Assembly (NCBI GenBank): GCA_030390025.1
Contig: CM059431.1
Span: 117,244,001-117,308,000 of the forward strand
DNA from: Squalus acanthias
Taxonomy: Eukaryota
Length of the DNA: 64,000 bases
Direction of reading: 5' to 3'
Made by a program: the position numbers and the translations under genes. Positions 10,568 to 28,637 of this stretch are shown piece after piece (the stretch's first letter is position 1; each line of letters starts with the position of its first letter). Below the pieces are notes generated by a model. The model was not told the origin of the DNA and did not search any database. It worked only from the letters and a program-made list of their open reading frames with translations.

Positions 10568-11682
10568 TAAGAAGTACATCTGCTTTTTTTAAATACAGCT
10601 CCTGCTGGCTATGATAAGGAAATCTTGGATTCAGCATGCTTTCTGCAGTGAGACCTCTATAATTTATTCTCCCAGGTTCTAGCACTGTTTTTCATAGAGA
10701 TTTTTTCCCCCAATTTTGCTGTGGAAACTTAAACAGATAATTAGTTCTTGCACTTGTTTTATGTTAAGTCTGTTGAAAGGCCTCAATTATCTTGAACTAC
10801 AGGGGGATATAATCCTTACCACGGGGCCTAACCTTATTATTTCTCGGGAGCACTCTGTTAAATTTAAAACATGGGGAAACTGATGATGCATTTTTAAAGA
10901 AAAATATGATAGAGCTGTAATGCAGAGAAAGTATAAACACTGTCCATATAAGTAAAAGAGAACTGACATATTTATGTCAATATCATGATATCCAATAAAT
11001 TGCTGGAAATATATGACTACATCTAGAAAGAGAAATTATTTCTGTGGAAATCCTTTTATTAAAATTCAAGTAGAGACCCTTTGCTCGTCTGTTGAAGGGC
11101 CTCCAGACAAAGAATTTAAACTATTGTTTTGTTCTTTTTAGGTGTTGATGAACCTACATCCAGCTTTCACTGCTTTCATTTTAGATTTTCCAGTAATTTA
11201 CACATTATTTCTTTTTAACCCATGATGACACATTATTACATTTATATTACATCATTAGATATGCTCCATAATTTTCCTCGAAGAGTATTCCAATAAATAG
11301 GATTAAAAGAAACTCCCTTTATCAAAATTAGAGTTGGGCTTAAGCATAAAATATGCAGATATGAAGAGGAGGACAAAAAGAAATAAGTTCAGCCAAAGAT
11401 TGAAATGTGAGGTTCTTAACATGGCTTTGTATTGTAAGGGATTCTGACCCTGCGTGTCTCGCAGCCTGTGAGATTCACGCGGCTCTGTGCAGCCTGTATG
11501 TCAGTGCGGGTCTAGGCCTTGTTGCCTGTTCTGGTCTCCAGCCAGTCTGGGAACACTAGACACACCTGTGAGTGGTTCGAATCACTCTCCCTTACGGTTC
11601 TAGACACTGGACTTAGATGCGAGAGCAGTAATGGAGATGAAACTCATGTAGACTTGGTTTGAATGGTACGAAATGGAAAATC

Positions 11683-11688
11683 TTTATT
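11683..11688 (-). terminator. LTR polyadenylation signal AATAAA (also at +7757 and +15514)
   Basis: tttatt on the + strand; conserved at the equivalent position in related LTRs (39094-39099 and 41682-41687). Confidence 0.7.
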
Positions 11689-11892
11689 GCATGATACTTA
11701 AGATTATGAAATACATGTCATAAGCACAGATTAATGACAGTACAATCTTACAAACAGTTATATAGTCGATCTTAGGGAAACGAGGAACGAACGGCACAAA
11801 GTAAATAGGGGCACACATTACAAATATCCTTAATCCTTAAACCTCCCCTATCAATATCTATCCTAAAACTAGATTCGTAGGATTTCGAGACT

Positions 11893-11904
11893 CATGCTCA
11901 CCAC
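11893..11904 (-). promoter_or_regulatory. Putative major splice donor in the LTR R region (TG|GTGAGCAT)
   Basis: TGGTGAGCAT is retained in all three LTR lineages (also 38879-38888 and 41835-41844) despite divergent surroundings. Confidence 0.55.
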
Positions 11905-12277
11905 TCGTGATAACTCGGAGAAATTCCGAATAGCTGATCGGATGTTTTTCACCGCAGCACCCACGTGTCGGTCAGGAGATCTCCTGGTCCCACTTGTTTA
12001 CTTGCTTTTACTGCTCCGGCTAGCAGGCTGGAACGTCTGCTGTGATGAAGACCTGTGTTGGTTGGTTTAACAGGTACTCTTCGAGCACAGTTGTCGATAT
12101 CGTCGATACGATATGGCTTTCACATTCCAGTTACTTTGGGCACAGTCCAGTTATCATCGATGCAATATGTTTCGTTATAAGTTCGAAGAAGTCTTCCCAG
12201 CGAGGAAAACGTGGATAATCGACCTACAGGCGCGGTCGGGATTTACTGACCGTGGCGATGGATATGGTCTTCCTCTC

Positions 12278-12312
12278 TTCTCATCTCATCTCATCTCATC
12301 TCATCTCATCTC
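12278..12312 (+). repeat. (TCTCA)n pentanucleotide run inside the LTR
   Basis: tctcatctcatctcatctcatctcatctcatctc, same length in all three LTRs. Confidence 0.85.
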
Positions 12313-12508
12313 GGGCCTTTGGTTCCGCTGCCAGTTACCAACATAGGTCTTCGTTACGCGACACGAGGTAGATCCGAACGGATCAGAAAGTTCAACAGTC
12401 TTTTTCAAAGAGTCAACAGGCAAGCAGGAGCCCGACTACGAGTACACAGGAGCAGCCACGAGGTTACGAAATAAGAGCACAGGATAAGAGAAAGCTGGAC
12501 GGTTTGGA

Positions 12509-12521
12509 GCCTGCAATTATA
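12509..12521 (-). promoter_or_regulatory. Putative LTR TATA box (TATAATTGCAGGC); 5' LTR copy at about 28023-28035
   Basis: gcctgcaattata here versus gccttcaattata at about 42177-42189 in the diverged solo LTR; GC box/E2F-like ttttcccgccc just upstream. Confidence 0.55.
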
Positions 12522-13123
12522 GTGCAAAATCTTCCGTTTTCCCGCCCAACTATAATGTCCATTCTTTTGTTTAGGGTTTGGCGCTCAAAATGTCTTGTAT
12601 GGGTGATCTCCGTTCTTAATGGGTTTCGGGGCTACTCGTAAATGTCTGAGTACCTGTTAATATTTCTCCCATTGTTAAATCGGTCGGTGTTCTCCCTGGA
12701 GGGGTTTGGGGCTTCCAAGTGTCCTGTATAACTACCTGCTAACGGCTCTCTCATCGTAGAGTCGTTGGGATTTTACATATTAATGTCTTTTGGATGGGCC
12801 CTTGATTACTCGGTACAATGGCTTTCCTTTGTACCTGGGAGACCGATTTCAGTATCTATGTGTATACTGCAAACCCATAATGTCTCGTGTATTATCTTCA
12901 CTGTGCTGAATCTTAATCGATCTTGCACAAATGTTTATTGGAACGCCATCTTGTCTGCCTGTTGAAAAGTCTAGAATGTTCTGTCACGAGGTGCGGCGGC
13001 CATTTTACAGGCTGCTTGTGTCCACTTTAAACCTGCCAGCATTCTACTGAAATAAAAGCTGTTTGAACGAAACTCTGTGTTTTCTCCTTATTAATAAAAT
13101 CGCGATATATTGCGAATTCTACA

Positions 13124-13135
13124 GTCCCTCCTGTT
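13124..13135 (-). promoter_or_regulatory. Polypurine tract-like sequence (AACAGGAGGGAC) abutting the 3' LTR
   Basis: Purine-rich run immediately 5' of TGTAGAATT on the minus strand. Confidence 0.6.
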
Positions 13136-13574
13136 GATGCGAATAACTCCGCTTATCGTATCAAAAATCATAGTGGTGAGCAATATTATCTTGATTTCTC
13201 TCCGAATCCAGTAAATTAATCCCATAATTTTAACTTAGCTAGGGTCTCTGTGTCGTCCTCATTTCCCAAGAAAATTACATTTTATATCACCGTAGGCATT
13301 ATTTGCCCTTAAACTTACACCACTTGTTTTCCTTCCCGGCGTAACCAGGCCGATGCCTCTCGTATCACCTGTATATTCATCTTTTATTCAGGGAAAGGAG
13401 AAACAGAACCCAAAACCAAACAATCATTTTTAACTGTAACACCATCACCAAAATAAATCAACACCAACTCTTAAAACATGTCGAGTTCCCAACGTATTTA
13501 CAATCTCTGAAAATCTTATATGAGTACAGGCTTCCGCGGCGCACGCGGCGAGCGGGAGTGACGCCATTTTCCGA

Positions 13575-15926
13575 TTACACGGTGCTCTCATCGTGCACGC
13601 GCACGTAACGTTCTCGCCACTCTCCCGTGTTTTCATGCTTGGTGAGGCGTTTGTCTCTTTTACAATGTACAACCAATAGGTACACTACAATGAAAACTTG
13701 GCATACGACTAAAATGTGGGAGGCTATTCTGATCCATGAAGGTACTTCAATATTGGTGAACAGATTCCACCACGGTGGAACTACTATATCCAGAATGTCT
13801 GTTCCTATTTCGACAGTTTTCTGCTCTAATGTGTAAAAATGTTTCTGTGACACCGCGACGGCTTTCAAAAGCTTGGTGAGGTGTTCAGGGAGAGGGGGAA
13901 TGAGGTATCCAAAATGCGCGACGAATCGCTGCAAGTCGGTGAAATTCTCTTTTACTGTGAGATGAACAGTGGATGGTTCAGGGATTGGGATAATTCGCTG
14001 TTGTGCTACTTGAACTTCCGCCCTGGGTTTAAAACAGAAACTGCTGTCACTCACCGGACACCGGCTACGGTTTCCATGCTGGTAGTGTTGCGCTGCAGTG
14101 GTAACACAATATGTTCCACCCCCGATGTATGCTACCTGCGGAGGCACATGATCTTGTGCCATTGCCTCCATGGTGCAATTCATGGACTTGGCGCCAGCCG
14201 TTCTGAACCCGCACTGTGGTGTTAAAAAGGCATTCAAGTGCTGGGGGCACAGTATTATGTGTGCTCCCCTGCCACGACAACCAGAGAGATCTGTACCTGT
14301 CATCGTTTGCTCCCAGCGGATGACGTAAGGTGGAACCGCTGCATAACGAATGTGGGCTCCCCCCTGAATGACACCGATGTTCTCTACCCGATATACCGGG
14401 GCGGGCTTTGCTGTGTCGCCCAAAACCGGCATACGTAAAACTATACCCATGATGGTATGGTTTGATCGTCCGCAGTCCACGGGGACTGGGTAAGCTTCTG
14501 AAGCTAGCCTGAGCTGGCATGGACTTAATGCGTTCTGAAAAGGGTGGAGCGCCCGCAGGTGTTTGTTACTTATCCAGGACGGAACCAAACCTTGTTTTAA
14601 ATCCTCCAAATTACTGCGGCCCTCGCCCAGTAACCACGCCCCGTAAAGCACGCACACCTCGTTCTGCGCAGCTTGATCGGATGCATTCCGATCTTCCCTA
14701 ATCAGGGCATTTACCGTCTTTGCATGTTTCTCCAACTCTGCTACAATTTCCTTTAAATGGAGAGTCATGGCTTGGTCCTCGTGTAGACCCGACCCTACCA
14801 CTTTATTCTCATCTGTTAGAATGTCCTTTAATTGTGTCTTTAAACCATTAATCTGGGTCTGCAGCTCCACACTGTCTAGAGCGTTGACCACAGATGTACC
14901 TGTGTTAAAAGCAGTGAACGCATCGTTCACCAAACCCCTTCTTTGCCTCCCTACTTGATCCAAAACTTCCTGTGGTGCGGTGTACAAACTTGTTTTATCA
15001 ATTTCCGCGAAATCGAATTCGTAAAATTGTCTGAACATCTTGGTCAACAGGACCTGGTACAACTGTTCCGTCTTTTTGGGGCACCACTCTGGTAACCGCA
15101 CCTCAGTGAGATTTAAAATCACCGAGGCCACCGCGTAATGTACCCCCTGAAATAGTATCTGGTCTGTGGGGACCAGTACCAAACCATTCCCGGGTCCCTT
15201 ACTAGTTTTAGGGCACCCTTCTTCCTCAGCTAGAACCACCGGAATCGTGGGCGGGGCTTTGCGTGGGCGCGTAATGAGCTCAGTGGCATTTACTGGGATC
15301 GGGGAGAATGGGGCTCCGCACCCCCTGGTGCTCGCATCCCACCTCATCCCCTGTCCGTTATCCTGCCATTGATTAATAAAAAATATGGAGATGCCTTTGG
15401 GGCAAACGTACTTTGACCCCCACATACATACATAAATTCCCTCATCCGGTTCCCACCATTTGTCCCAACAGACTTTCACTTGTCCGTCTGTCCCCGTAAT
15501 TGTCCGATGGGTATTATTACCCAGTCGTTCCCACTCGACCGAAGAGTTCCTCATAGTTTTGCTCAGCTTTCGCAGCCACCACCATCGGCTCAATGGGACC
15601 TTCCCACTACAAGTCAAACAAATCCGTTTGCCGACGGTGACGCTGATCCTGGGTGCGATGATCCTTACTTTGGGGCACAGTAAAGAAGTCTCTTTGTAGG
15701 CAAACCCCGATGTGCTGGAATACTCCGTTGAGTTCGTTCCCAGCCATCCTGGCCACCTTCCCTTGTGAAAATAGGTGCTGGTCTCCTCTGCCTCCCGTCT
15801 TCCGGTCCCATCCACCGCGATGGGGGCCGTGTCCCCGGAACATCCAAACACCACGACATCCTTGGTGCGGCCTCGATAGGCCAATCCACATCCGATTGCC
15901 ACGAGCAATACTAGAATTCGTTCCAT
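13575..15926 (-). CDS. env: Envelope glycoprotein, copy 1 (783 aa from the likely ATG; open frame extends to 16109): signal peptide, Ig-like domain, furin site, class I F-like fusogen, TM
   Basis: Signal-like MERILVLLVAIGCGLA in strong Kozak context (AAGATGG); LTC...W...DEGIYVC; RQRR|GLVNDAFTAFNTG; heptad repeat; Cys-rich region; TM IASHILVVCQVFIVVYLLVVHC; several N-x-S/T sequons. Confidence 0.88.
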   Translation of the reverse strand: MERILVLLVAIGCGLAYRGRTKDVVVFGCSGDTAPIAVDGTGRREAEETSTYFHKGRWPGWLGTNSTEYSSTSGFAYKETSLLCPKVRIIAPRISVTVGKRICLTCSGKVPLSRWWWLRKLSKTMRNSSVEWERLGNNTHRTITGTDGQVKVCWDKWWEPDEGIYVCMWGSKYVCPKGISIFFINQWQDNGQGMRWDASTRGCGAPFSPIPVNATELITRPRKAPPTIPVVLAEEEGCPKTSKGPGNGLVLVPTDQILFQGVHYAVASVILNLTEVRLPEWCPKKTEQLYQVLLTKMFRQFYEFDFAEIDKTSLYTAPQEVLDQVGRQRRGLVNDAFTAFNTGTSVVNALDSVELQTQINGLKTQLKDILTDENKVVGSGLHEDQAMTLHLKEIVAELEKHAKTVNALIREDRNASDQAAQNEVCVLYGAWLLGEGRSNLEDLKQGLVPSWISNKHLRALHPFQNALSPCQLRLASEAYPVPVDCGRSNHTIMGIVLRMPVLGDTAKPAPVYRVENIGVIQGGAHIRYAAVPPYVIRWEQTMTGTDLSGCRGRGAHIILCPQHLNAFLTPQCGFRTAGAKSMNCTMEAMAQDHVPPQVAYIGGGTYCVTTAAQHYQHGNRSRCPVSDSSFCFKPRAEVQVAQQRIIPIPEPSTVHLTVKENFTDLQRFVAHFGYLIPPLPEHLTKLLKAVAVSQKHFYTLEQKTVEIGTDILDIVVPPWWNLFTNIEVPSWIRIASHILVVCQVFIVVYLLVVHCKRDKRLTKHENTGEWRERYVRVHDESTV

Positions 15927-15938
15927 CTTTCCTTGGTT

Positions 15939-15960
15939 CCTGTGATCAGATAGAATGAGG
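15939..15960 (-). promoter_or_regulatory. Candidate env splice acceptor
   Basis: Minus strand CTCATTCTATCTGATCACAG|GAACCAAGGAAAG-ATG; the acceptor lies 13 nt before the env ATG. Confidence 0.5.
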
Positions 15961-16212
15961 TAGCCAGCCTCGCAAGAGTCTCTGGCTTTTGTGAAGGGTG
16001 AGCGGGTCCCCTGACCTCGCCTCACGTAAACTTCAACGTTCGCTGAATAAACTTTCACTAAACCTATCTTTAAAACTCCCATCATTTTATCGTTTTCTGT
16101 TAAAAACACTACAAACTTAACCTTATTAAAGCTATAAACTTAACCTTGAAATATTAACTTAAAACTTATTACTACTTACTATACAGTGCCGCCCGTTCTC
16201 AGGGCGGCCCCT

Positions 16213-17373
16213 TTAAATTCTGAGAAGGCTGCTGCGAGCTCTTCCCGACGGTGGGAGGGCACTGACCCTTCCCTCTGATCTGCCGCAGCCTGTTACTGCG
16301 CTGACCCTTCCCTCTGATCTGCCGCAGCCTGTTACTGCTGCGATGTGGCCGGTCTGTACCTGGGTTATCTTAACCTTAAATTTTCGCCTTGGGACAGTCT
16401 GGGGACATGACCACATCCTCCTGGGCTGGGGTTCTCTACTTGACCTACGGGGAGTTGCTGTGGGCGGGGGTTCCGTGACGGACGGACCGGGTTCCGAGAC
16501 CTCCATCGGGATGACCTGGGGTTCCATCACAGTCGCCGGCTCCGCCTCCGCTGACTCCGCCTCCCTAACCTCGGGGCTGGCAGTTCGTGGCTCCGCCCTG
16601 CTCGGCCCAGCAGGCGGCCCTTCACTCGTGATCTCTGCCTCCCCTGAGGACTGGACGTTCAAAGCGGGCGGCCACATCTCTGGGAGCCACACCGGTACTC
16701 TCTGTGCTCCCATAGCGGCTGGCCCTGCCTCCTCTAGCTCCTCCCTCCTGTCTTCGGGACCTGCAGCTCGTGTGTCCACCCTGTGTGGATCTCTACCTGC
16801 AGCCCCCGTCCCCTCCATATCGTAAAAGGGACCGTTCCTCCGAAACCACCCGTCGTCATCACTATCCTCATCTGCACTATCCTCATCTGACCCGGGTACC
16901 CTGAATTCTTCCTCATCTAACCCCCAATTCCAGAAAAACGCTGCATGATCGTCCGGGATGTCCCTTCCTCTGATGCAAGCTGCTATGCCTGCCTGTGTGC
17001 CTTGTGGTCCTACCTGGGGCTGTGCTTTCCCACTGGCGGGATTTACCCCTGTGATTTTCCCTTGCGCACCTGGCTTGTACAGTTTGCACTGGTTTGCATC
17101 CTCATACTCCCGGCTTTTGGCTACCCTGTAGGCTGCTTTTATCTCACTAAGCTGCGCTTCTAGCCTGAGCACGTCTAACTTTCCCATTGCTCGGGCGTTC
17201 TCCTCCCGCAGGGCCTGCTCTCTAAGCTGCCCTTCCAGCCCATCTATTTTCCCTATTAAGCGGGCGTTCTCCTCCCGCAAGGCCTGCTCTTTTAACCTGG
17301 CCTCCTCACCGCAGACCCCCTCCTGTGCGTGTCTTTTAAAAGGACACAGGTAGGCAGGCTGCGTGGGCTCTAG
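16213..17373 (-). CDS. ORF2, copy 1: 386 codons in frame with gag after a single TGA; coiled-coil N-part, acidic tract, Pro/Glu-rich C-part; function unknown
   Basis: Manual translation 3' of the gag TGA gives LEPTQPAYLCPFKRHAQEGVCGEEARLKEQA, continuing without a stop into the 355-aa ORF of the track (which starts at TTG). Confidence 0.75.
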   Translation of the reverse strand, partial: LEPTQPAYLCPFKRHAQEGVCGEEARLKEQALREENARLIGKIDGLEGQLREQALREENARAMGKLDVLRLEAQLSEIKAAYRVAKSREYEDANQCKLYKPGAQGKITGVNPASGKAQPQVGPQGTQAGIAACIRGRDIPDDHAAFFWNWGLDEEEFRVPGSDEDSADEDSDDDGWFRRNGPFYDMEGTGAAGRDPHRVDTRAAGPEDRREELEEAGPAAMGAQRVPVWLPEMWPPALNVQSSGEAEITSEGPPAGPSRAEPRTASPEVREAESAEAEPATVMEPQVIPMEVSEPGPSVTEPPPTATPRRSSREPQPRRMWSCPQTVPRRKFKVKITQVQTGHIAAVTGCGRSEGRVSAVTGCGRSEGRVSALPPSGRARSSLLRI

Positions 17374-19185
17374 TCATTGGGTACTATTAGACGGTCCTGC
17401 GGCACCTACGGGGCCGGTTGCGACCGCCACCTGTCCACGCGCATTCAAGACCAGCTTGCGCATGGCTCCTAACACTGCTTCGAGGTCGTCGGGAGGGGTG
17501 GGTGCCTTGGCTTCCTTAGCCGGGACAGGCGCCTGGGCTCGGACCGCGGGATTTTTATCCTTGGAATCCTTCCAAGGGTTCCTGCAATGCTTGCGCCAGT
17601 GCCCTGTCTTCCCACACCCGTAACAAGCATTACTTGCCTGTGGGGCGCGATTACCCTCTTGATGCCACTCTCTTTGATACGGGGCTGCGGGTCGTACCTC
17701 ATGTACTCTTCCCTTAAGGGGACGTGTTGCCATACCCCTTATATTGCGATAACCTAACGTGAGTCGATTCAAGATCGACTCTTCCGTAATGTTGGGGTCA
17801 TTGGGATCAAACCATGCTTTTGCCTGCTCTCTGACGGCTGGTAAACTGTTGGCTATTATGCACCTAAGCCAATGAGTTAAAGCTAAACCTTCCACATCTT
17901 CGCGCTCGGGCGCACCTAGACAGCTGCGCTCATATACTGGCCACAGCCTGTCGGCAAAAACCTTCGGGGGTTCTCCCTCCATCTGCACTGTCTGTCCCAC
18001 TCTAGCAAACGGACCTTCGTCGTTCGCCCCCAACACTTCCAGGACCTCATTCTTTAATTCCTCATAACTCTTGGTTCCCCTCTTGCTCTCGCCTGAGAGA
18101 CACTGAAGGACCGAGCTGTCTAATGAGAACAGCAGCATTTTTGCTGTCTCCCCATCATCGCAGCCGTTAATGGCTGCGGCTTGCTCAACTTCTCTGAAAT
18201 GTACGGAAGGGTCGTCTGCCTCGGTCAGCTTCCGTACGTGATTTATCATAGCTCTCAGCTGATGTGAACTGTGAGGCAACACCAGCTGTCCGAGGAGATC
18301 CCCCGGTTCTTCCCCACCGTTTCTGCTTGGGCCCCTTTTAATACCCGTTACTGGATATAACGATCCCTTTCCTACTTCTTTTTCAATGGGCTCTTTTGTT
18401 TCTTCCATTGCTTCCTCCCTAACCCAGGTTTCTGAATAGCTGGGTGGCACGGAGGGCGCAGTGACTACTACTCCTTCTGCTTTACTTGGTGGGGATTTTC
18501 TAAATCTCTCATTTACTAGCGGCTGGTGTGCCGACGGATTGATAAGGCACACCATGCCGTTCGCATTGTTCATGGCCTTTTTGAGGTGCTCTATCTCCCT
18601 TTGGCAGGCGCTATGATCGGCTCCCTGAAACTTATCCTCAAGGGCCAACTTATATGCCGCCCTAACCCCCGTCAAGCTCTCTTCTTGAGTTCTTATCTGG
18701 GCAGCTTGGCGGTTACATCTTTCCTTTAACCTGCTCTCATTCAATTTTGCCTCAGTGACCTGGCACTCGAGATAATCTATCCTTGTTTTAAGGTGACTGG
18801 AGACTTCCTGGCTTTCTTGGTGTAACTCATTTAAATTCTTAATGAGCACCTCCCCTCCAGAAACCTTCTCCTCCATTTCTCCCTCTAAATGACTGATTCG
18901 AGCTACTAGCGCTGTAATGGTCTGGTTGGAAATCTGAACCTGCCTTTTGTAACACATAAGCCAGACTGCTTTCTCAAGTGTCTTTTTATGTTCTTTACTA
19001 TCTGTCCACCTTTCAGCTGCCTCTAGCGGGCTTTTATCCGCTAACAATTCACTTATCCATTTCTTAGTTAGATTAACCTTTCCAAACACATAATCCGCTA
19101 TCTTTTCCTGCATAACATTTCGTACAGTCATTCCAAAATCTAACACACTACCCTCTCGCTGCCAGTGTCCTGCCGCGGTCGCCAT
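17374..19185 (-). CDS. gag: Gag polyprotein, copy 1 (603 aa)
   Basis: Coiled-coil N-part, PPSY late-domain motif, capsid-like region with MHR-like QMEGEPPKVFADRL, CCHC knuckle CYGCGKTGHWRKHC. Confidence 0.92.
   Translation of the reverse strand: MATAAGHWQREGSVLDFGMTVRNVMQEKIADYVFGKVNLTKKWISELLADKSPLEAAERWTDSKEHKKTLEKAVWLMCYKRQVQISNQTITALVARISHLEGEMEEKVSGGEVLIKNLNELHQESQEVSSHLKTRIDYLECQVTEAKLNESRLKERCNRQAAQIRTQEESLTGVRAAYKLALEDKFQGADHSACQREIEHLKKAMNNANGMVCLINPSAHQPLVNERFRKSPPSKAEGVVVTAPSVPPSYSETWVREEAMEETKEPIEKEVGKGSLYPVTGIKRGPSRNGGEEPGDLLGQLVLPHSSHQLRAMINHVRKLTEADDPSVHFREVEQAAAINGCDDGETAKMLLFSLDSSVLQCLSGESKRGTKSYEELKNEVLEVLGANDEGPFARVGQTVQMEGEPPKVFADRLWPVYERSCLGAPEREDVEGLALTHWLRCIIANSLPAVREQAKAWFDPNDPNITEESILNRLTLGYRNIRGMATRPLKGRVHEVRPAAPYQREWHQEGNRAPQASNACYGCGKTGHWRKHCRNPWKDSKDKNPAVRAQAPVPAKEAKAPTPPDDLEAVLGAMRKLVLNARGQVAVATGPVGAAGPSNSTQ
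19167..19184 (-). promoter_or_regulatory. Primer binding site, tRNA-Arg(TCG)-type
   Basis: TGGCGACCGCGGCAGGAC, 5 nt from the LTR end; complementary to the vertebrate tRNA-Arg(TCG) 3' end GTCCTGCCGCGGTCG-CCA as I recall it. Confidence 0.85.
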
Positions 19186-19189
19186 TTTC

Positions 19190-20880
19190 TGTAAGGGATT
19201 CTGACCCTGCGTGTCTCGCAGCCTGTGAGATTCACGCGGCTCTGTGCAGCCTGTATGTCAGTGCGGGTCTAGGCCTTGTTGCCTGTTCTGGTCTCCAGCC
19301 AGTCTGGGAACACTAGACACACCTGTGAGTGGTTCGAATCACTCTCCCTTACGGTTCTAGACACTGGACTTAGATGCGAGAGCAGTAATGGAGATGAAAC
19401 TCATGTAGACTTGGTTTGAATGGTACGAAATGGAAAATCTTTATTGCATGATACTTAAGATTATGAAATACATGTCATAAGCACAGATTAATGACAGTAC
19501 AATCTTACAAACAGTTATATAGTCGATCTTAGGGAAACGAGGAACGAACGGCACAAAGTAAATAGGGGCACACATTACAAATATCCTTAATCCTTAAACC
19601 TCCCCTATCAATATCTATCCTAAAACTAGATTCGTAGGATTTCGAGACTCATGCTCACCACTCGTGATAACTCGGAGAAATTCCGAATAGCTGATCGGAT
19701 GTTTTTCACCGCAGCACCCACGTGTCGGTCAGGAGATCTCCTGGTCCCACTTGTTTACTTGCTTTTACTGCTCCGGCTAGCAGGCTGGAACGTCTGCTGT
19801 GATGAAGACCTGTGTTGGTTGGTTTAACAGGTACTCTTCGAGCACAGTTGTCGATATCGTCGATACGATATGGCTTTCACATTCCAGTTACTTTGGGCAC
19901 AGTCCAGTTATCATCGATGCAATATGTTTCGTTATAAGTTCGAAGAAGTCTTCCCAGCGAGGAAAACGTGGATAATCGACCTACAGGCGCGGTCGGGATT
20001 TACTGACCGTGGCGATGGATATGGTCTTCCTCTCTTCTCATCTCATCTCATCTCATCTCATCTCATCTCGGGCCTTTGGTTCCGCTGCCAGTTACCAACA
20101 TAGGTCTTCGTTACGCGACACGAGGTAGATCCGAACGGATCAGAAAGTTCAACAGTCTTTTTCAAAGAGTCAACAGGCAAGCAGGAGCCCGACTACGAGT
20201 ACACAGGAGCAGCCACGAGGTTACGAAATAAGAGCACAGGATAAGAGAAAGCTGGACGGTTTGGAGCCTGCAATTATAGTGCAAAATCTTCCGTTTTCCC
20301 GCCCAACTATAATGTCCATTCTTTTGTTTAGGGTTTGGCGCTCAAAATGTCTTGTATGGGTGATCTCCGTTCTTAATGGGTTTCGGGGCTACTCGTAAAT
20401 GTCTGAGTACCTGTTAATATTTCTCCCATTGTTAAATCGGTCGGTGTTCTCCCTGGAGGGGTTTGGGGCTTCCAAGTGTCCTGTATAACTACCTGCTAAC
20501 GGCTCTCTCATCGTAGAGTCGTTGGGATTTTACATATTAATGTCTTTTGGATGGGCCCTTGATTACTCGGTACAATGGCTTTCCTTTGTACCTGGGAGAC
20601 CGATTTCAGTATCTATGTGTATACTGCAAACCCATAATGTCTCGTGTATTATCTTCACTGTGCTGAATCTTAATCGATCTTGCACAAATGTTTATTGGAA
20701 CGCCATCTTGTCTGCCTGTTGAAAAGTCTAGAATGTTCTGTCACGAGGTGCGGCGGCCATTTTACAGGCTGCTTGTGTCCACTTTAAACCTGCCAGCATT
20801 CTACTGAAATAAAAGCTGTTTGAACGAAACTCTGTGTTTTCTCCTTATTAATAAAATCGCGATATATTGCGAATTCTACA
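19190..20880 (-). repeat. LTR 2 (shared middle LTR), 1691 bp
   Basis: No difference from LTR 1 seen by eye; PBS on one side, PPT on the other. Confidence 0.95.
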
Positions 20881-20892
20881 GTCCCTCCTGTT
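20881..20892 (-). promoter_or_regulatory. Polypurine tract-like sequence, copy 2
   Basis: Same as 13124-13135. Confidence 0.6.
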
Positions 20893-21331
20893 GATGCGAA
20901 TAACTCCGCTTATCGTATCAAAAATCATAGTGGTGAGCAATATTATCTTGATTTCTCTCCGAATCCAGTAAATTAATCCCATAATTTTAACTTAGCTAGG
21001 GTCTCTGTGTCGTCCTCATTTCCCAAGAAAATTACATTTTATATCACCGTAGGCATTATTTGCCCTTAAACTTACACCACTTGTTTTCCTTCCCGGCGTA
21101 ACCAGGCCGATGCCTCTCGTATCACCTGTATATTCATCTTTTATTCAGGGAAAGGAGAAACAGAACCCAAAACCAAACAATCATTTTTAACTGTAACACC
21201 ATCACCAAAATAAATCAACACCAACTCTTAAAACATGTCGAGTTCCCAACGTATTTACAATCTCTGAAAATCTTATATGAGTACAGGCTTCCGCGGCGCA
21301 CGCGGCGAGCGGGAGTGACGCCATTTTCCGA

Positions 21332-23683
21332 TTACACGGTGCTCTCATCGTGCACGCGCACGTAACGTTCTCGCCACTCTCCCGTGTTTTCATGCTTGGT
21401 GAGGCGTTTGTCTCTTTTACAATGTACAACCAATAGGTACACTACAATGAAAACTTGGCATACGACTAAAATGTGGGAGGCTATTCTGATCCATGAAGGT
21501 ACTTCAATATTGGTGAACAGATTCCACCACGGTGGAACTACTATATCCAGAATGTCTGTTCCTATTTCGACAGTTTTCTGCTCTAATGTGTAAAAATGTT
21601 TCTGTGACACCGCGACGGCTTTCAAAAGCTTGGTGAGGTGTTCAGGGAGAGGGGGAATGAGGTATCCAAAATGCGCGACGAATCGCTGCAAGTCGGTGAA
21701 ATTCTCTTTTACTGTGAGATGAACAGTGGATGGTTCAGGGATTGGGATAATTCGCTGTTGTGCTACTTGAACTTCCGCCCTGGGTTTAAAACAGAAACTG
21801 CTGTCACTCACCGGACACCGGCTACGGTTTCCATGCTGGTAGTGTTGCGCTGCAGTGGTAACACAATATGTTCCACCCCCGATGTATGCTACCTGCGGAG
21901 GCACATGATCTTGTGCCATTGCCTCCATGGTGCAATTCATGGACTTGGCGCCAGCCGTTCTGAACCCGCACTGTGGTGTTAAAAAGGCATTCAAGTGCTG
22001 GGGGCACAGTATTATGTGTGCTCCCCTGCCACGACAACCAGAGAGATCTGTACCTGTCATCGTTTGCTCCCAGCGGATGACGTAAGGTGGAACCGCTGCA
22101 TAACGAATGTGGGCTCCCCCCTGAATGACACCGATGTTCTCTACCCGATATACCGGGGCGGGCTTTGCTGTGTCGCCCAAAACCGGCATACGTAAAACTA
22201 TACCCATGATGGTATGGTTTGATCGTCCGCAGTCCACGGGGACTGGGTAAGCTTCTGAAGCTAGCCTGAGCTGGCATGGACTTAATGCGTTCTGAAAAGG
22301 GTGGAGCGCCCGCAGGTGTTTGTTACTTATCCAGGACGGAACCAAACCTTGTTTTAAATCCTCCAAATTACTGCGGCCCTCGCCCAGTAACCACGCCCCG
22401 TAAAGCACGCACACCTCGTTCTGCGCAGCTTGATCGGATGCATTCCGATCTTCCCTAATCAGGGCATTTACCGTCTTTGCATGTTTCTCCAACTCTGCTA
22501 CAATTTCCTTTAAATGGAGAGTCATGGCTTGGTCCTCGTGTAGACCCGACCCTACCACTTTATTCTCATCTGTTAGAATGTCCTTTAATTGTGTCTTTAA
22601 ACCATTAATCTGGGTCTGCAGCTCCACACTGTCTAGAGCGTTGACCACAGATGTACCTGTGTTAAAAGCAGTGAACGCATCGTTCACCAAACCCCTTCTT
22701 TGCCTCCCTACTTGATCCAAAACTTCCTGTGGTGCGGTGTACAAACTTGTTTTATCAATTTCCGCGAAATCGAATTCGTAAAATTGTCTGAACATCTTGG
22801 TCAACAGGACCTGGTACAACTGTTCCGTCTTTTTGGGGCACCACTCTGGTAACCGCACCTCAGTGAGATTTAAAATCACCGAGGCCACCGCGTAATGTAC
22901 CCCCTGAAATAGTATCTGGTCTGTGGGGACCAGTACCAAACCATTCCCGGGTCCCTTACTAGTTTTAGGGCACCCTTCTTCCTCAGCTAGAACCACCGGA
23001 ATCGTGGGCGGGGCTTTGCGTGGGCGCGTAATGAGCTCAGTGGCATTTACTGGGATCGGGGAGAATGGGGCTCCGCACCCCCTGGTGCTCGCATCCCACC
23101 TCATCCCCTGTCCGTTATCCTGCCATTGATTAATAAAAAATATGGAGATGCCTTTGGGGCAAACGTACTTTGACCCCCACATACATACATAAATTCCCTC
23201 ATCCGGTTCCCACCATTTGTCCCAACAGACTTTCACTTGTCCGTCTGTCCCCGTAATTGTCCGATGGGTATTATTACCCAGTCGTTCCCACTCGACCGAA
23301 GAGTTCCTCATAGTTTTGCTCAGCTTTCGCAGCCACCACCATCGGCTCAATGGGACCTTCCCACTACAAGTCAAACAAATCCGTTTGCCGACGGTGACGC
23401 TGATCCTGGGTGCGATGATCCTTACTTTGGGGCACAGTAAAGAAGTCTCTTTGTAGGCAAACCCCGATGTGCTGGAATACTCCGTTGAGTTCGTTCCCAG
23501 CCATCCTGGCCACCTTCCCTTGTGAAAATAGGTGCTGGTCTCCTCTGCCTCCCGTCTTCCGGTCCCATCCACCGCGATGGGGGCCGTGTCCCCGGAACAT
23601 CCAAACACCACGACATCCTTGGTGCGGCCTCGATAGGCCAATCCACATCCGATTGCCACGAGCAATACTAGAATTCGTTCCAT
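21332..23683 (-). CDS. env: Envelope glycoprotein, copy 2
   Basis: Translation identical to copy 1. Confidence 0.88.
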   Translation of the reverse strand: MERILVLLVAIGCGLAYRGRTKDVVVFGCSGDTAPIAVDGTGRREAEETSTYFHKGRWPGWLGTNSTEYSSTSGFAYKETSLLCPKVRIIAPRISVTVGKRICLTCSGKVPLSRWWWLRKLSKTMRNSSVEWERLGNNTHRTITGTDGQVKVCWDKWWEPDEGIYVCMWGSKYVCPKGISIFFINQWQDNGQGMRWDASTRGCGAPFSPIPVNATELITRPRKAPPTIPVVLAEEEGCPKTSKGPGNGLVLVPTDQILFQGVHYAVASVILNLTEVRLPEWCPKKTEQLYQVLLTKMFRQFYEFDFAEIDKTSLYTAPQEVLDQVGRQRRGLVNDAFTAFNTGTSVVNALDSVELQTQINGLKTQLKDILTDENKVVGSGLHEDQAMTLHLKEIVAELEKHAKTVNALIREDRNASDQAAQNEVCVLYGAWLLGEGRSNLEDLKQGLVPSWISNKHLRALHPFQNALSPCQLRLASEAYPVPVDCGRSNHTIMGIVLRMPVLGDTAKPAPVYRVENIGVIQGGAHIRYAAVPPYVIRWEQTMTGTDLSGCRGRGAHIILCPQHLNAFLTPQCGFRTAGAKSMNCTMEAMAQDHVPPQVAYIGGGTYCVTTAAQHYQHGNRSRCPVSDSSFCFKPRAEVQVAQQRIIPIPEPSTVHLTVKENFTDLQRFVAHFGYLIPPLPEHLTKLLKAVAVSQKHFYTLEQKTVEIGTDILDIVVPPWWNLFTNIEVPSWIRIASHILVVCQVFIVVYLLVVHCKRDKRLTKHENTGEWRERYVRVHDESTV

Positions 23684-23969
23684 CTTTCCTTGGTTCCTGT
23701 GATCAGATAGAATGAGGTAGCCAGCCTCGCAAGAGTCTCTGGCTTTTGTGAAGGGTGAGCGGGTCCCCTGACCTCGCCTCACGTAAACTTCAACGTTCGC
23801 TGAATAAACTTTCACTAAACCTATCTTTAAAACTCCCATCATTTTATCGTTTTCTGTTAAAAACACTACAAACTTAACCTTATTAAAGCTATAAACTTAA
23901 CCTTGAAATATTAACTTAAAACTTATTACTACTTACTATACAGTGCCGCCCGTTCTCAGGGCGGCCCCT

Positions 23970-25130
23970 TTAAATTCTGAGAAGGCTGCTGCGAGCTCTT
24001 CCCGACGGTGGGAGGGCACTGACCCTTCCCTCTGATCTGCCGCAGCCTGTTACTGCGCTGACCCTTCCCTCTGATCTGCCGCAGCCTGTTACTGCTGCGA
24101 TGTGGCCGGTCTGTACCTGGGTTATCTTAACCTTAAATTTTCGCCTTGGGACAGTCTGGGGACATGACCACATCCTCCTGGGCTGGGGTTCTCTACTTGA
24201 CCTACGGGGAGTTGCTGTGGGCGGGGGTTCCGTGACGGACGGACCGGGTTCCGAGACCTCCATCGGGATGACCTGGGGTTCCATCACAGTCGCCGGCTCC
24301 GCCTCCGCTGACTCCGCCTCCCTAACCTCGGGGCTGGCAGTTCGTGGCTCCGCCCTGCTCGGCCCAGCAGGCGGCCCTTCACTCGTGATCTCTGCCTCCC
24401 CTGAGGACTGGACGTTCAAAGCGGGCGGCCACATCTCTGGGAGCCACACCGGTACTCTCTGTGCTCCCATAGCGGCTGGCCCTGCCTCCTCTAGCTCCTC
24501 CCTCCTGTCTTCGGGACCTGCAGCTCGTGTGTCCACCCTGTGTGGATCTCTACCTGCAGCCCCCGTCCCCTCCATATCGTAAAAGGGACCGTTCCTCCGA
24601 AACCACCCGTCGTCATCACTATCCTCATCTGCACTATCCTCATCTGACCCGGGTACCCTGAATTCTTCCTCATCTAACCCCCAATTCCAGAAAAACGCTG
24701 CATGATCGTCCGGGATGTCCCTTCCTCTGATGCAAGCTGCTATGCCTGCCTGTGTGCCTTGTGGTCCTACCTGGGGCTGTGCTTTCCCACTGGCGGGATT
24801 TACCCCTGTGATTTTCCCTTGCGCACCTGGCTTGTACAGTTTGCACTGGTTTGCATCCTCATACTCCCGGCTTTTGGCTACCCTGTAGGCTGCTTTTATC
24901 TCACTAAGCTGCGCTTCTAGCCTGAGCACGTCTAACTTTCCCATTGCTCGGGCGTTCTCCTCCCGCAGGGCCTGCTCTCTAAGCTGCCCTTCCAGCCCAT
25001 CTATTTTCCCTATTAAGCGGGCGTTCTCCTCCCGCAAGGCCTGCTCTTTTAACCTGGCCTCCTCACCGCAGACCCCCTCCTGTGCGTGTCTTTTAAAAGG
25101 ACACAGGTAGGCAGGCTGCGTGGGCTCTAG
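23970..25130 (-). CDS. ORF2 (gag-readthrough extension), copy 2
   Basis: Identical to copy 1; TGA-CTAG junction at 25127-25133. Confidence 0.75.
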   Translation of the reverse strand, partial: LEPTQPAYLCPFKRHAQEGVCGEEARLKEQALREENARLIGKIDGLEGQLREQALREENARAMGKLDVLRLEAQLSEIKAAYRVAKSREYEDANQCKLYKPGAQGKITGVNPASGKAQPQVGPQGTQAGIAACIRGRDIPDDHAAFFWNWGLDEEEFRVPGSDEDSADEDSDDDGWFRRNGPFYDMEGTGAAGRDPHRVDTRAAGPEDRREELEEAGPAAMGAQRVPVWLPEMWPPALNVQSSGEAEITSEGPPAGPSRAEPRTASPEVREAESAEAEPATVMEPQVIPMEVSEPGPSVTEPPPTATPRRSSREPQPRRMWSCPQTVPRRKFKVKITQVQTGHIAAVTGCGRSEGRVSAVTGCGRSEGRVSALPPSGRARSSLLRI

Positions 25131-26942
25131 TCATTGGGTACTATTAGACGGTCCTGCGGCACCTACGGGGCCGGTTGCGACCGCCACCTGTCCACGCGCA
25201 TTCAAGACCAGCTTGCGCATGGCTCCTAACACTGCTTCGAGGTCGTCGGGAGGGGTGGGTGCCTTGGCTTCCTTAGCCGGGACAGGCGCCTGGGCTCGGA
25301 CCGCGGGATTTTTATCCTTGGAATCCTTCCAAGGGTTCCTGCAATGCTTGCGCCAGTGCCCTGTCTTCCCACACCCGTAACAAGCATTACTTGCCTGTGG
25401 GGCGCGATTACCCTCTTGATGCCACTCTCTTTGATACGGGGCTGCGGGTCGTACCTCATGTACTCTTCCCTTAAGGGGACGTGTTGCCATACCCCTTATA
25501 TTGCGATAACCTAACGTGAGTCGATTCAAGATCGACTCTTCCGTAATGTTGGGGTCATTGGGATCAAACCATGCTTTTGCCTGCTCTCTGACGGCTGGTA
25601 AACTGTTGGCTATTATGCACCTAAGCCAATGAGTTAAAGCTAAACCTTCCACATCTTCGCGCTCGGGCGCACCTAGACAGCTGCGCTCATATACTGGCCA
25701 CAGCCTGTCGGCAAAAACCTTCGGGGGTTCTCCCTCCATCTGCACTGTCTGTCCCACTCTAGCAAACGGACCTTCGTCGTTCGCCCCCAACACTTCCAGG
25801 ACCTCATTCTTTAATTCCTCATAACTCTTGGTTCCCCTCTTGCTCTCGCCTGAGAGACACTGAAGGACCGAGCTGTCTAATGAGAACAGCAGCATTTTTG
25901 CTGTCTCCCCATCATCGCAGCCGTTAATGGCTGCGGCTTGCTCAACTTCTCTGAAATGTACGGAAGGGTCGTCTGCCTCGGTCAGCTTCCGTACGTGATT
26001 TATCATAGCTCTCAGCTGATGTGAACTGTGAGGCAACACCAGCTGTCCGAGGAGATCCCCCGGTTCTTCCCCACCGTTTCTGCTTGGGCCCCTTTTAATA
26101 CCCGTTACTGGATATAACGATCCCTTTCCTACTTCTTTTTCAATGGGCTCTTTTGTTTCTTCCATTGCTTCCTCCCTAACCCAGGTTTCTGAATAGCTGG
26201 GTGGCACGGAGGGCGCAGTGACTACTACTCCTTCTGCTTTACTTGGTGGGGATTTTCTAAATCTCTCATTTACTAGCGGCTGGTGTGCCGACGGATTGAT
26301 AAGGCACACCATGCCGTTCGCATTGTTCATGGCCTTTTTGAGGTGCTCTATCTCCCTTTGGCAGGCGCTATGATCGGCTCCCTGAAACTTATCCTCAAGG
26401 GCCAACTTATATGCCGCCCTAACCCCCGTCAAGCTCTCTTCTTGAGTTCTTATCTGGGCAGCTTGGCGGTTACATCTTTCCTTTAACCTGCTCTCATTCA
26501 ATTTTGCCTCAGTGACCTGGCACTCGAGATAATCTATCCTTGTTTTAAGGTGACTGGAGACTTCCTGGCTTTCTTGGTGTAACTCATTTAAATTCTTAAT
26601 GAGCACCTCCCCTCCAGAAACCTTCTCCTCCATTTCTCCCTCTAAATGACTGATTCGAGCTACTAGCGCTGTAATGGTCTGGTTGGAAATCTGAACCTGC
26701 CTTTTGTAACACATAAGCCAGACTGCTTTCTCAAGTGTCTTTTTATGTTCTTTACTATCTGTCCACCTTTCAGCTGCCTCTAGCGGGCTTTTATCCGCTA
26801 ACAATTCACTTATCCATTTCTTAGTTAGATTAACCTTTCCAAACACATAATCCGCTATCTTTTCCTGCATAACATTTCGTACAGTCATTCCAAAATCTAA
26901 CACACTACCCTCTCGCTGCCAGTGTCCTGCCGCGGTCGCCAT
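25131..26942 (-). CDS. gag: Gag polyprotein, copy 2
   Basis: Translation identical to copy 1. Confidence 0.92.
   Translation of the reverse strand: MATAAGHWQREGSVLDFGMTVRNVMQEKIADYVFGKVNLTKKWISELLADKSPLEAAERWTDSKEHKKTLEKAVWLMCYKRQVQISNQTITALVARISHLEGEMEEKVSGGEVLIKNLNELHQESQEVSSHLKTRIDYLECQVTEAKLNESRLKERCNRQAAQIRTQEESLTGVRAAYKLALEDKFQGADHSACQREIEHLKKAMNNANGMVCLINPSAHQPLVNERFRKSPPSKAEGVVVTAPSVPPSYSETWVREEAMEETKEPIEKEVGKGSLYPVTGIKRGPSRNGGEEPGDLLGQLVLPHSSHQLRAMINHVRKLTEADDPSVHFREVEQAAAINGCDDGETAKMLLFSLDSSVLQCLSGESKRGTKSYEELKNEVLEVLGANDEGPFARVGQTVQMEGEPPKVFADRLWPVYERSCLGAPEREDVEGLALTHWLRCIIANSLPAVREQAKAWFDPNDPNITEESILNRLTLGYRNIRGMATRPLKGRVHEVRPAAPYQREWHQEGNRAPQASNACYGCGKTGHWRKHCRNPWKDSKDKNPAVRAQAPVPAKEAKAPTPPDDLEAVLGAMRKLVLNARGQVAVATGPVGAAGPSNSTQ
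26924..26941 (-). promoter_or_regulatory. Primer binding site, copy 2
   Basis: gtcctgccgcggtcgcca on the + strand. Confidence 0.85.
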
Positions 26943-26946
26943 TTTC

Positions 26947-28637
26947 TGTAAGGGATTCTGACCCTGCGTGTCTCGCAGCCTGTGAGATTCACGCGGCTCT
27001 GTGCAGCCTGTATGTCAGTGCGGGTCTAGGCCTTGTTGCCTGTTCTGGTCTCCAGCCAGTCTGGGAACACTAGACACACCTGTGAGTGGTTCGAATCACT
27101 CTCCCTTACGGTTCTAGACACTGGACTTAGATGCGAGAGCAGTAATGGAGATGAAACTCATGTAGACTTGGTTTGAATGGTACGAAATGGAAAATCTTTA
27201 TTGCATGATACTTAAGATTATGAAATACATGTCATAAGCACAGATTAATGACAGTACAATCTTACAAACAGTTATATAGTCGATCTTAGGGAAACGAGGA
27301 ACGAACGGCACAAAGTAAATAGGGGCACACATTACAAATATCCTTAATCCTTAAACCTCCCCTATCAATATCTATCCTAAAACTAGATTCGTAGGATTTC
27401 GAGACTCATGCTCACCACTCGTGATAACTCGGAGAAATTCCGAATAGCTGATCGGATGTTTTTCACCGCAGCACCCACGTGTCGGTCAGGAGATCTCCTG
27501 GTCCCACTTGTTTACTTGCTTTTACTGCTCCGGCTAGCAGGCTGGAACGTCTGCTGTGATGAAGACCTGTGTTGGTTGGTTTAACAGGTACTCTTCGAGC
27601 ACAGTTGTCGATATCGTCGATACGATATGGCTTTCACATTCCAGTTACTTTGGGCACAGTCCAGTTATCATCGATGCAATATGTTTCGTTATAAGTTCGA
27701 AGAAGTCTTCCCAGCGAGGAAAACGTGGATAATCGACCTACAGGCGCGGTCGGGATTTACTGACCGTGGCGATGGATATGGTCTTCCTCTCTTCTCATCT
27801 CATCTCATCTCATCTCATCTCATCTCGGGCCTTTGGTTCCGCTGCCAGTTACCAACATAGGTCTTCGTTACGCGACACGAGGTAGATCCGAACGGATCAG
27901 AAAGTTCAACAGTCTTTTTCAAAGAGTCAACAGGCAAGCAGGAGCCCGACTACGAGTACACAGGAGCAGCCACGAGGTTACGAAATAAGAGCACAGGATA
28001 AGAGAAAGCTGGACGGTTTGGAGCCTGCAATTATAGTGCAAAATCTTCCGTTTTCCCGCCCAACTATAATGTCCATTCTTTTGTTTAGGGTTTGGCGCTC
28101 AAAATGTCTTGTATGGGTGATCTCCGTTCTTAATGGGTTTCGGGGCTACTCGTAAATGTCTGAGTACCTGTTAATATTTCTCCCATTGTTAAATCGGTCG
28201 GTGTTCTCCCTGGAGGGGTTTGGGGCTTCCAAGTGTCCTGTATAACTACCTGCTAACGGCTCTCTCATCGTAGAGTCGTTGGGATTTTACATATTAATGT
28301 CTTTTGGATGGGCCCTTGATTACTCGGTACAATGGCTTTCCTTTGTACCTGGGAGACCGATTTCAGTATCTATGTGTATACTGCAAACCCATAATGTCTC
28401 GTGTATTATCTTCACTGTGCTGAATCTTAATCGATCTTGCACAAATGTTTATTGGAACGCCATCTTGTCTGCCTGTTGAAAAGTCTAGAATGTTCTGTCA
28501 CAAGGTGCGGCGGCCATTTTACAGGCTGCTTGTGTCCACTTTAAACCTGCCAGCATTCTACTGAAATAAAAGCTGCTTGAACGAAACTCTGTGTTTTCTC
28601 CTTATTAATAAAATCGCGATATATTGCGAATTCTACA
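26947..28637 (-). repeat. LTR 3 (5' LTR of the array), 1691 bp
   Basis: Same termini; differs from LTR 1 and LTR 2 at 28502 (A vs G) and 28576 (C vs T). Confidence 0.95.

Follow-up and report, generated by a model that had tools for sequence, protein, structure and literature searches.

A pol-less, env-keeping endogenous retrovirus of Squalus acanthias: a tandem locus probably derived from a helper-dependent lineage

Deletion derivatives of endogenous retroviruses (ERVs) that are complemented in trans are known from several hosts, e.g. IAP I-delta-1 and ETn/MusD from the mouse, the deleted form of human HERV-H and ENS-1/ENS-3 from the chicken. In IAP I-delta-1 an in-frame deletion gives rise to a novel Gag-Pol fusion protein, and this element and its kin reach copy numbers of the same order as those of their autonomous partners. 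To our knowledge, the known deleted forms have no functional env and spread inside cells. Here we describe an ERV from the shark Squalus acanthias that resembles these derivatives in its copy number but differs from them in having kept an env gene with a ratio of nonsynonymous to synonymous substitution rates (ω) of 0.09-0.21. The analysed stretch of DNA comprises 64,000 nucleotides (contig CM059431.1 of assembly GCA_030390025.1, positions 117,244,001 to 117,308,000 of the forward strand) and is referred to as the window; the element occupies positions 11433-28637 of its minus strand. We consider it highly probable that this locus is the tandem duplicate of an insertion from a helper-dependent, non-autonomous retroviral lineage, which would have arisen from a complete gag-pol-env ERV of the same family.

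Two further systems are close to this element. The zebrafish BHIKHARI elements (Bik-1 and Bik-2) are likewise recently active, multi-copy and non-autonomous, and their gag is intact and codes for a coiled coil at the N-terminus, according to the accessible part of a preprint in which chicken ENS-1 is also mentioned (bioRxiv 10.1101/2024.03.25.586437). However, as described there, BHIKHARI consists of gag only, without pol and env, whereas the shark element keeps a selected env and a remnant of pol. In addition, the BHIKHARI elements are presented in that text as relatives of the lokiretroviruses, and the shark element appears to be of another lineage. The second system is snakehead retrovirus (SnRV), which the available portion of a recent article places in a clade of ERVs from reptiles, birds, amphibians and fish as its sole exogenous member, and for which it states an Env cytoplasmic tail of 136 residues as compared to about 28 in our element (PMC12193657). 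SnRV also has accessory open reading frames (ORFs). None like them was found in the element, in which a 63-aa ORF at 13445-13636 (minus strand), overlapping the end of env in another frame and located at the position of the SnRV 3'ORF, is covered by 11 copies and contains stops in 3 of them.

A pol-less form that keeps env was not described in the literature that we found on lokiretroviruses, SnRV, foamy virus Env and shark ERVs, the literature on deleted ERVs being covered in part. What is unusual about the form presented here is that env is retained and conserved in the absence of pol, that the form is abundant and persistent, and that an open fusion frame runs across the deletion scar.

The tandem array and its pol-bearing partner

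On the minus strand, on which the features of the element lie, the locus has the structure LTR-internal-LTR-internal-LTR (LTR, long terminal repeat), i.e. it is a tandem dimer whose two units have the middle LTR in common. The direct repeats, each 1691 bp long, begin at 11433, 19190 and 26947 with a spacing of 7757 bp. They correspond to the 3' LTR of unit A (11433-13123), the middle LTR common to both units (19190-20880) and the 5' LTR of the array (26947-28637). Over their 7757 positions, unit A (11433-19189) and unit B (19190-26946) show no difference, and the middle LTR is identical to that at 11433-13123. Relative to these two LTRs, the 5' LTR of the array has two differences, at 28502 and 28576, and at the equivalents of both variable sites the middle LTR holds the states of the 3' LTR.

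All LTRs begin and end with TG..CA and contain, counted in the sense direction, AATAAA at positions 185 and 1436 as well as a TATA-like site at position 1360. An 18-nt primer binding site (PBS) starts four bases past the 5' LTR of each unit, at 19167-19184 in unit A, where it overlaps the first gag codons, and at 26924-26941 in unit B. In a tRNA-Arg(TCG) of the host, the 3' end together with CCA is complementary to all 18 nucleotides of this site. This tRNA was identified by searching the genome for the PBS complement joined to a T-loop motif, which gave 574 sites; those that were fetched were recognised as tRNA-Arg(TCG) by ARAGORN. At the opposite end of the internal region a short purine run, ACAGGAGGGAC in sense orientation (13124-13134 in unit A), adjoins the 3' LTR as polypurine tract (PPT). 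The observed/expected ratio of CpG is 0.79 in the element as compared to 0.34 and 0.37 in the flanks.

Between PBS and PPT, each internal region of 6066 bp contains three open frames. These are gag (603 aa, ending with TGA; 17374-19185 in unit A and 25131-26942 in unit B), ORF2 (324 aa from the first ATG, 386 aa from stop to stop) and env (836 aa; 13575-16085 in unit A and, with identical sequence, 21332-23842 in unit B). Intact termini, PBS, PPT and AATAAA, near-identical LTRs, abundant CpG and three uninterrupted frames had all been noted in a first-pass annotation of this stretch, and the analysis bears these statements out.

The predicted Gag protein has a long N-terminal coiled coil, a helical domain and a CCHC knuckle at residue 521. 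An AlphaFold2 (AF2) model of Gag, built from 4 sequences and with a predicted local distance difference test score (pLDDT) of 49.7, gave no Foldseek match at E values up to 0.001. The weak best rows obtained with this low-confidence model were the capsids of murine leukemia virus (MLV) and HIV, Arc and PNMA2 (E 0.06-0.36), which is at most suggestive of a capsid-like fold.

No protease, reverse transcriptase (RT), RNase H or integrase domain was detected by Pfam in gag, ORF2 or env. Such domains are encoded, however, by a partner element in the same host, the assembly of which comprises 3.7 Gb. The LTR has 41 matches with 92-100% identity in this genome (40 scored of 4477 first-look candidates), and the LTR pairs are spaced by either ~7.7 kb or ~11.1 kb. 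Three of the long pairs were fetched, and each of them contains gag, one stop, a long ORF in the same frame and env; the long ORF has 1498 aa in two copies and 1276 aa in the third. The 1498-aa ORF matches the Pfam families RVT_1 (5e-36), RT_RNaseH_2, RT_RNaseH, RNase_H (2e-19), Integrase_H2C2 and rve; RVP is matched with 20.0 bits, slightly below the cut-off of 20.7. By these domain matches it is a retroviral Pol with the predicted order protease, RT, tether, RNase H and integrase, with a degenerate tether and a second RNase H. In the full-length copies an in-frame TGA stands between gag and pol. LTRs (95-100% identity), PBS, gag and env are common to the pol-less unit and its full-length partner, and a pol-containing relative of the kind that the first-pass annotation had envisaged is thus present in the host genome.

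Alignment with a full-length copy defines the deletion. Positions 1009-3539 and 3786-8729 of the unit align to this copy with 97.5-99% identity (BLASTN), while its positions 4740-8360 are missing from the unit and 246 nt stand there instead. Thus, ~3.6 kb of pol are replaced by a 246-nt filler. Since BLASTN with the full-length relative accounts for the entire internal region except for this filler, there is no room for a pol gene, in agreement with the first-pass annotation.

ORF2, which had been listed there as a gene of its own, turned out differently. It is identical to Pol residues 1201-1498 at 274 of 311 positions (88%, BLASTP), and its Pol portion comprises the ~280 last residues, past the SH3-like domain of the integrase. 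In unit A the gag TGA is followed by the first 32 nt of pol (17342-17373), the filler (17096-17341) and the C-terminal tail of Pol (16213-17095, ~residues 1220-1498). These parts form one continuous frame in phase with gag (16213-17373, and 23970-25130 in unit B). Judged from the alignments, ORF2 is therefore the integrase C-terminal tail of Pol plus the 246-nt filler and no new gene.

The filler encodes a coiled-coil-like stretch and has an internal repeat of ~70 nt. It is absent from the full-length copies and was found with 92-100% identity in 16 of 16 pol-less copies. These form, together with 3 full-length copies, the sample in which copies were compared. Eight of the pol-less copies were taken from the LTR matches that scored best, and the other eight from junction matches without mismatch on three contigs. 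With regard to the origin of the filler, the full-length element gives no match beyond chance words, there is no significant likeness to the coiled coil of the element's own Gag (E 1.2), and Pfam contains only a sub-threshold coiled-coil match (Rab11-FIP3, E 0.0065). The frame equivalent to 16213-17373 has 0 stops in all 16 copies, as compared to 16-23 stops in each of the other two sense frames, and it stays open also in the 5 of 16 copies in which env is broken or shortened. An open frame of this kind suggests that a Gag-filler-tail fusion protein may be made, a possible parallel to that of mouse IAP I-delta-1.

Opposite the pol remnant, an antisense open frame of 202 codons is present at 16217-16825 on the plus strand. 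Across most copies it contains 2-4 stops, as compared to 10-17 in the other reverse frames, for which the composition of the tail, which is GC-rich, may be responsible.

Copy number, selection and the envelope protein

The abundance of the two forms was estimated with patterns for their boundaries. A 40-nt pattern for the 5' deletion junction (up to 2 mismatches) has 1083 matches in the genome and a pattern for the intact gag-pol boundary has 1710, the reversed-pattern controls giving 0 in both cases. Of the ~2800 internal regions counted with these two patterns, about two fifths are of the pol-less form. For the 3' junction, a pattern of the subtype present in the window has 181 matches; this side of the junction lies in the fast-evolving tail, the first ~57 nt of which cannot be aligned in 4 of the 16 sampled copies. 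All 40 scored matches of a 446-nt junction query, which lie on many contigs, are 99-100% identical over the full length or minus the first two bases.

Furthermore, the flanks of 11 loci were examined, namely 3 full-length copies, 7 pol-less copies and the window. Perfect 4-bp target duplications, all different and with distinct flanks, are present at 8 of these loci, two continue into further tandem units, and the flanks of the window do not match. The LTR pairs within copies differ by 0-4 mismatches and 0-4 gap openings per ~1.65-1.7 kb. The pol-less copies thus constitute a family of insertions that are independent and recent. A one-off deletion, which the first-pass annotation had named as a refuting case, does not apply, as the junction recurs 1083 times. 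The small divergence between paired LTRs and the retained CpG agree with the recent mobility that was claimed there.

Sequencing runs under four organism codes (X1, X4, X9 and X11) yielded contigs that are 90-100% like the element over the whole internal region. In two of these contigs (X1 record 5 and X9 record 30) the sequence across the 5' junction is free of differences, and this pol-less form may also exist in related species or samples.

The genes of the 16 pol-less copies differ in their degree of constraint. In env, variants shared between copies comprise 27 nonsynonymous and 86 synonymous changes (ω ~0.09) and singletons 75 and 107 (ω ~0.21). For gag, ω is 0.33-0.46 and for the Pol tail 0.94-1.10; in the filler the shared variants (9 nonsynonymous, 3 synonymous) and singletons (12 and 10) are too few for an ω value. 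Identity to the window copy amounts to 93-99% for env, 81-99% for gag and 74-99% for the Pol tail. These values argue for strong purifying selection on env and for purifying selection on gag as well, and the Pol tail appears to be under none.

Ladder-like trees were obtained for gag, env and the tail, and pol-less copies stand at each rung sampled. The trunk of the gag tree measures ~0.125 substitutions per site as compared to terminal branches of 0.007-0.015 in 5 of 6 basal copies; the most basal copy, L036, has a terminal gag branch of 0.17. Because the trunk is long and the terminal branches are short, most of the change arose in a replicating lineage before insertion. The deleted form is present through the entire sampled history.

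The Env protein contains a furin-like site, RQRR, at residues 380-383, directly followed by the hydrophobic stretch GLVNDAFTAF..., and a hydrophobic membrane anchor at residues 785-808. A furin-type cleavage site immediately before a hydrophobic peptide together with a C-terminal anchor is the arrangement of a fusion protein of class I, and Env may be regarded as such by its sequence features. Comparisons at the sequence level gave little beyond this. Matches in Pfam are all sub-threshold (DUF6360, E 0.033; Ig_3, E 0.51), phmmer against the PDB gave E values above 1, and a protein atlas yielded a single unnamed chordate cluster (0.84). PF00523 (Fusion_gly) is not matched at E up to 1 by Env, nor at E up to 0.1 by the 19 of its 49 relatives that were scanned. 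These 49 relatives were obtained by a HMMER scan, and those checked by name are from sharks, skate and frogs. The query and 38 of the 49 were aligned, 11 gene-fusion or very short rows being left out. The Env profile built on this alignment matches a 988-aa chain annotated as 'Envelope glycoprotein' (8ozh) at E 7e-4, which we take to be the Env of prototype foamy virus (PFV).

An AF2 model of Env was then compared with known structures. All Foldseek rows listed from the PDB (ranks 1-50) belong to F proteins of paramyxo- or pneumoviruses (best E 3e-11, probability 1.00). A second structural aligner (VIA) gave Z scores of 12-13 with 290-371 aligned residues, whereby Env 298-768 is matched to residues 26-484 of F, the entire ectodomain; one such row is F of human parainfluenza virus 3 (hPIV3; residues 26-484, Z 12.9, 371 residues). 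An F-type class I fusion fold with domains I-III and heptad repeats A and B is thus supported for Env by the predicted model, in line with the F-type envelope of the first-pass annotation. The modelled Env has in common with the F proteins the furin-like site, the heptad helices and the C-terminal anchor, but differs from them in the lack of a PF00523 match and in ~290 extra N-terminal residues. The latter precede the F-like part, are unmodelled and contain the weak hint of Ig_3 mentioned above.

Among the viral models of BFVD, the Env model matches Env of walleye epidermal hyperplasia virus 1 (E 2e-11) and of walleye dermal sarcoma virus (WDSV; E 3.5e-9), and further glycoproteins of arli- and lispiviruses, baculovirus F, paramyxovirus F0 and feline foamy virus Env (E 6e-4). 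A link between foamy virus Env and the F fold is in print, as far as the accessible part of that article goes (PMC12390576). Since foamy virus Env shares it and the predicted Envs of two walleye epsilonretroviruses are matched as well, the F-like fold is not specific to lokiretroviruses.

Propagation of the pol-less form and alternative readings

If the locus belongs to a helper-dependent lineage, as we favour, its history may be pictured as follows. In one event, ~3.6 kb of pol, from the protease to the integrase core, would have been swapped for the 246-nt filler, while LTRs and tRNA-Arg primer site, gag and env, and also the 3' end of pol remained in place. The defective genome would be transcribed from its own LTR and packaged into particles by Gag, and its reverse transcription and integration would be carried out in trans by Pol from full-length copies in the same cell. 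It would then spread to new germline cells by reinfection via the F-type class I Env, leaving 4-bp duplications; that spread involves Env is suggested by the constraint on env. Readthrough of the gag stop would yield a Gag-coiled-coil-tail fusion in place of the parental Gag-Pol, and a later unequal exchange between LTRs would have doubled the unit in the window. In retroviruses the signals for env splicing usually sit in the 3' tail of pol, and the tail may have been retained for this reason. Taken together, the constraint on env and the persistence of the form along the ladder point to a defective genome that still spreads between cells together with its helper.

Several observations weigh against this history or limit its basis. 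The array in the window is flanked by GTAT on the left and TATA on the right, without a matching 4-bp duplication, and the identity of its units could also be explained by an assembly error. Only 32 nt of parental sequence follow the gag stop, so that a readthrough signal may have been lost. Minimum free energy (MFE) folds of the 106 nt past this stop, a method blind to pseudoknots, hardly differ from those of shuffled sequences in the full-length form (z 0.05) and are mildly better in the pol-less form (z -1.36). None of the sequencing runs in which the junction occurs is recorded as RNA, and the contigs of the four runs contain no splice-like joint. The AF2 model of Env has a mean pLDDT of 60, with values of 80-95 over residues ~290-370 and 450-700 and poor values over 1-290. 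The estimates of ω are crude, since changes were counted against the most frequent codon, uncorrected for multiple hits, and shared variants are not independent. The sample is also small, comprising 16 of the ~1083 pol-less copies and 3 of the ~1710 full-length ones. Finally, full-length and pol-less copies interleave in the gag and env trees within the young crown; with 3 label changes, their separation is no better than in shuffles.

Because of this interleaving, the constraint on env may be imposed in the helper and passed on by recombination. The deleted form would then be a defective passenger, the gag and env of which are continually replaced from the helper through co-packaging and template switching, with selection on env acting in the helper. 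Apart from the crown of the trees, two observations are in favour of this. Two pol-less loci on one contig (C4a and C4b on C4, i.e. L025+L026 and L027+L028) bear an LTR variant otherwise found in full-length copies, a ~36-bp difference near LTR positions 973-1008, and the remnant Pol tail evolves as it does in full-length copies. The interleaving and the two loci make exchange between helper and defective genomes likely, and we regard a passenger as a serious possibility, although one with less than even chances. However, it would refine helper dependence and not contradict it, so that the likelihoods given here do not add up to one. With 3 full-length copies compared, all from the young group, the passenger and the self-propagating helper-dependent lineage are indistinguishable. 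Moreover, Env would be needed by either genome for spread from cell to cell, and the constraint would hence act on particles carrying either of them.

The helper-dependent lineage that we prefer may have gone further than mere persistence. Somewhat speculatively, and with a likelihood slightly below that of the passenger, the pol-less form could be a long-lived infectious 'satellite retrovirus' that co-evolved with its helper through the diversification of the family, its own capsid and F-type entry genes being under selection and its scar-derived readthrough protein helping it to compete for the enzymes or particles of the helper.

We consider it unlikely that only one provirus is present at the locus and that the tandem arose as an artefact of assembly. 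The 0 differences in 7757 bp and the mismatched flanks would fit an artefact, but arrays of the same period occur elsewhere. In a second array (C11) the three LTRs show pairwise differences of 1-2 bases, and a single GAGA duplication surrounds the array. Matches spaced by ~7.7 kb make up 7 of the first 100 listed for the junction pattern, and full-length pairs spaced by ~11.1 kb make up 6 of 100. In addition, the middle LTR of the window has the 3'-LTR states at both variable sites, as predicted by unequal exchange between LTRs, and the tandem fits such an exchange for this reason, the mechanism itself being inferred. Tandem proviruses that share their middle LTR are known, e.g. from a human HERV-K locus, which has the same order LTR-int-LTR-int-LTR and one target duplication as in C11; the arrays of our element make up several percent of the listed copies and occur in both forms.

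Arrays of full-length copies are found, for example, at C1:103331065/103342182, C2:105116589/105127655 and C6:53079979/53091104. At two fetched loci the outer LTR abuts another internal region (arrays L013+L014 and L029+L030).

Least probable is that pol-less proviruses are recurrent dead-end products, made anew from full-length genomes by a favoured template switch and not replicating themselves: retroviral reverse transcriptases do produce deletions by template switching and both forms interleave in the crown, but the junction is no simple deletion, as the filler has no match in the full-length element, occurs in all 16 copies and diverges along with them, is restricted to copies of one lineage in the sample, and belongs to a form standing at all sampled rungs over ~12% gag divergence, to which a single origin followed by propagation fits far better.

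Lineage placement and neighbouring sequences

With TG..CA LTRs, a tRNA PBS, a PPT, 4-bp target duplications and the gag-pol-env of its partner, the family has the features of an ERV of the Retroviridae type. In comparison with the PDB, the RT-RNase H part of Pol scores 245 bits with Ty3, 238 bits with MLV/XMRV and 218 bits with foamy virus, and the best match of the integrase region is PFV integrase (E 1.6e-33). The nearest named relatives of Pol are frog and coelacanth proteins with 43-45% identity. In a Pol tree of 69 rows the element forms a clade with these proteins (SH-aLRT 98), apart from gamma/epsilon-like ERVs and gypsy-like outgroups.

For a closer placement, six RT motifs were compared with three reference RT alignments in the available part of the supplement to a study on lokiretroviruses (PMC7947760). 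Among the rows shown, DISNGFW, LPQGFH, IFHQ and KINPKK, i.e. four of the six, occur only in SnRV, while QGVLR is common to SnRV and foamy viruses and FAFTF to SnRV and WDSV. Since the motifs match the SnRV rows, we provisionally place the family in or near the SnRV clade. A primer site for tRNA-Arg is also attributed to SnRV.

The first-pass annotation had connected the element with the lokiretroviruses, the RT of which forms a clade sister to the other retroviruses, and this connection did not hold against the RT rows available. In the portions of PMC7947760 and its supplement at hand, the RT rows of Loki-Xla, Loki-Xtr and Loki-Npa read ..PFGYINAGHEF.. and ..SYVDDILIKS.., Loki-Xtr is printed as a single Spc7-Gag-Pol polyprotein, and lokiretroviruses are listed in 0 of 3 genomes of Orectolobiformes (Chondrichthyes). 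The RT of the element reads LPQGFHNSPSIFHQ and QYVDDLLL. Membership in the lokiretroviruses was rejected on the grounds that these RT motifs differ from the printed rows and that gag and pol are split by an in-frame TGA, as opposed to a layout in one ORF. Sequence similarity of Env to PF00523, a further trait of lokiretroviruses, is likewise not seen in the element at E up to 1, its likeness to F lying at the level of the predicted fold.

A foamy-like ERV was considered as well, in view of the PFV match of the integrase region and the match of the Env profile to the 988-aa chain, but was not adopted, because Gag has a CCHC knuckle, gag and pol are joined by an in-frame stop and the RT-RNase H part is no closer to foamy viruses. 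QYVDDLLL occurs 9 times in the supplement of PMC7947760; among the passages shown these are rows of MuLV and FLV, and no foamy-like ERV is among them.

With this placement, an F-type fusion protein would be found in a retrovirus with an SnRV-like RT. Together with the cases of foamy viruses, lokiretroviruses and the walleye epsilonretrovirus models, this suggests that the F module is widespread in retroviruses of lower vertebrates and does not mark a single lineage.

In the course of the analysis some further sequences were noted. The 20-nt 3' end of tRNA-Arg(TCG) occurs at its 574 sites mostly, among those listed, in long tandem arrays with a period of ~1623 bp, e.g. on contig C26 at ~38.99-42.2 Mb (L040 and L041) and at L039 on C23; one unit also carries a tRNA-Ser(GCT) gene. 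In the window, ~660 bp past the end of the element, a 30-bp minisatellite extends from 29296 to 30637 (44.7 copies, 91% match, unit CCCGCTCCCGGTCCAGACCCCCTGGTCTCC) and yields long spurious ORFs on both strands. On the other side of the element, an open frame of 259 codons at 9317-10096 (plus strand) has a sub-threshold match to GIY-YIG (E 0.0057) and presumably resembles the endonuclease end of a Penelope-like retroelement. A further open frame of 280 codons at 43974-44816 (plus strand) contains a weak RVT_1 fragment (E 0.0039) and is probably another decayed retroelement.

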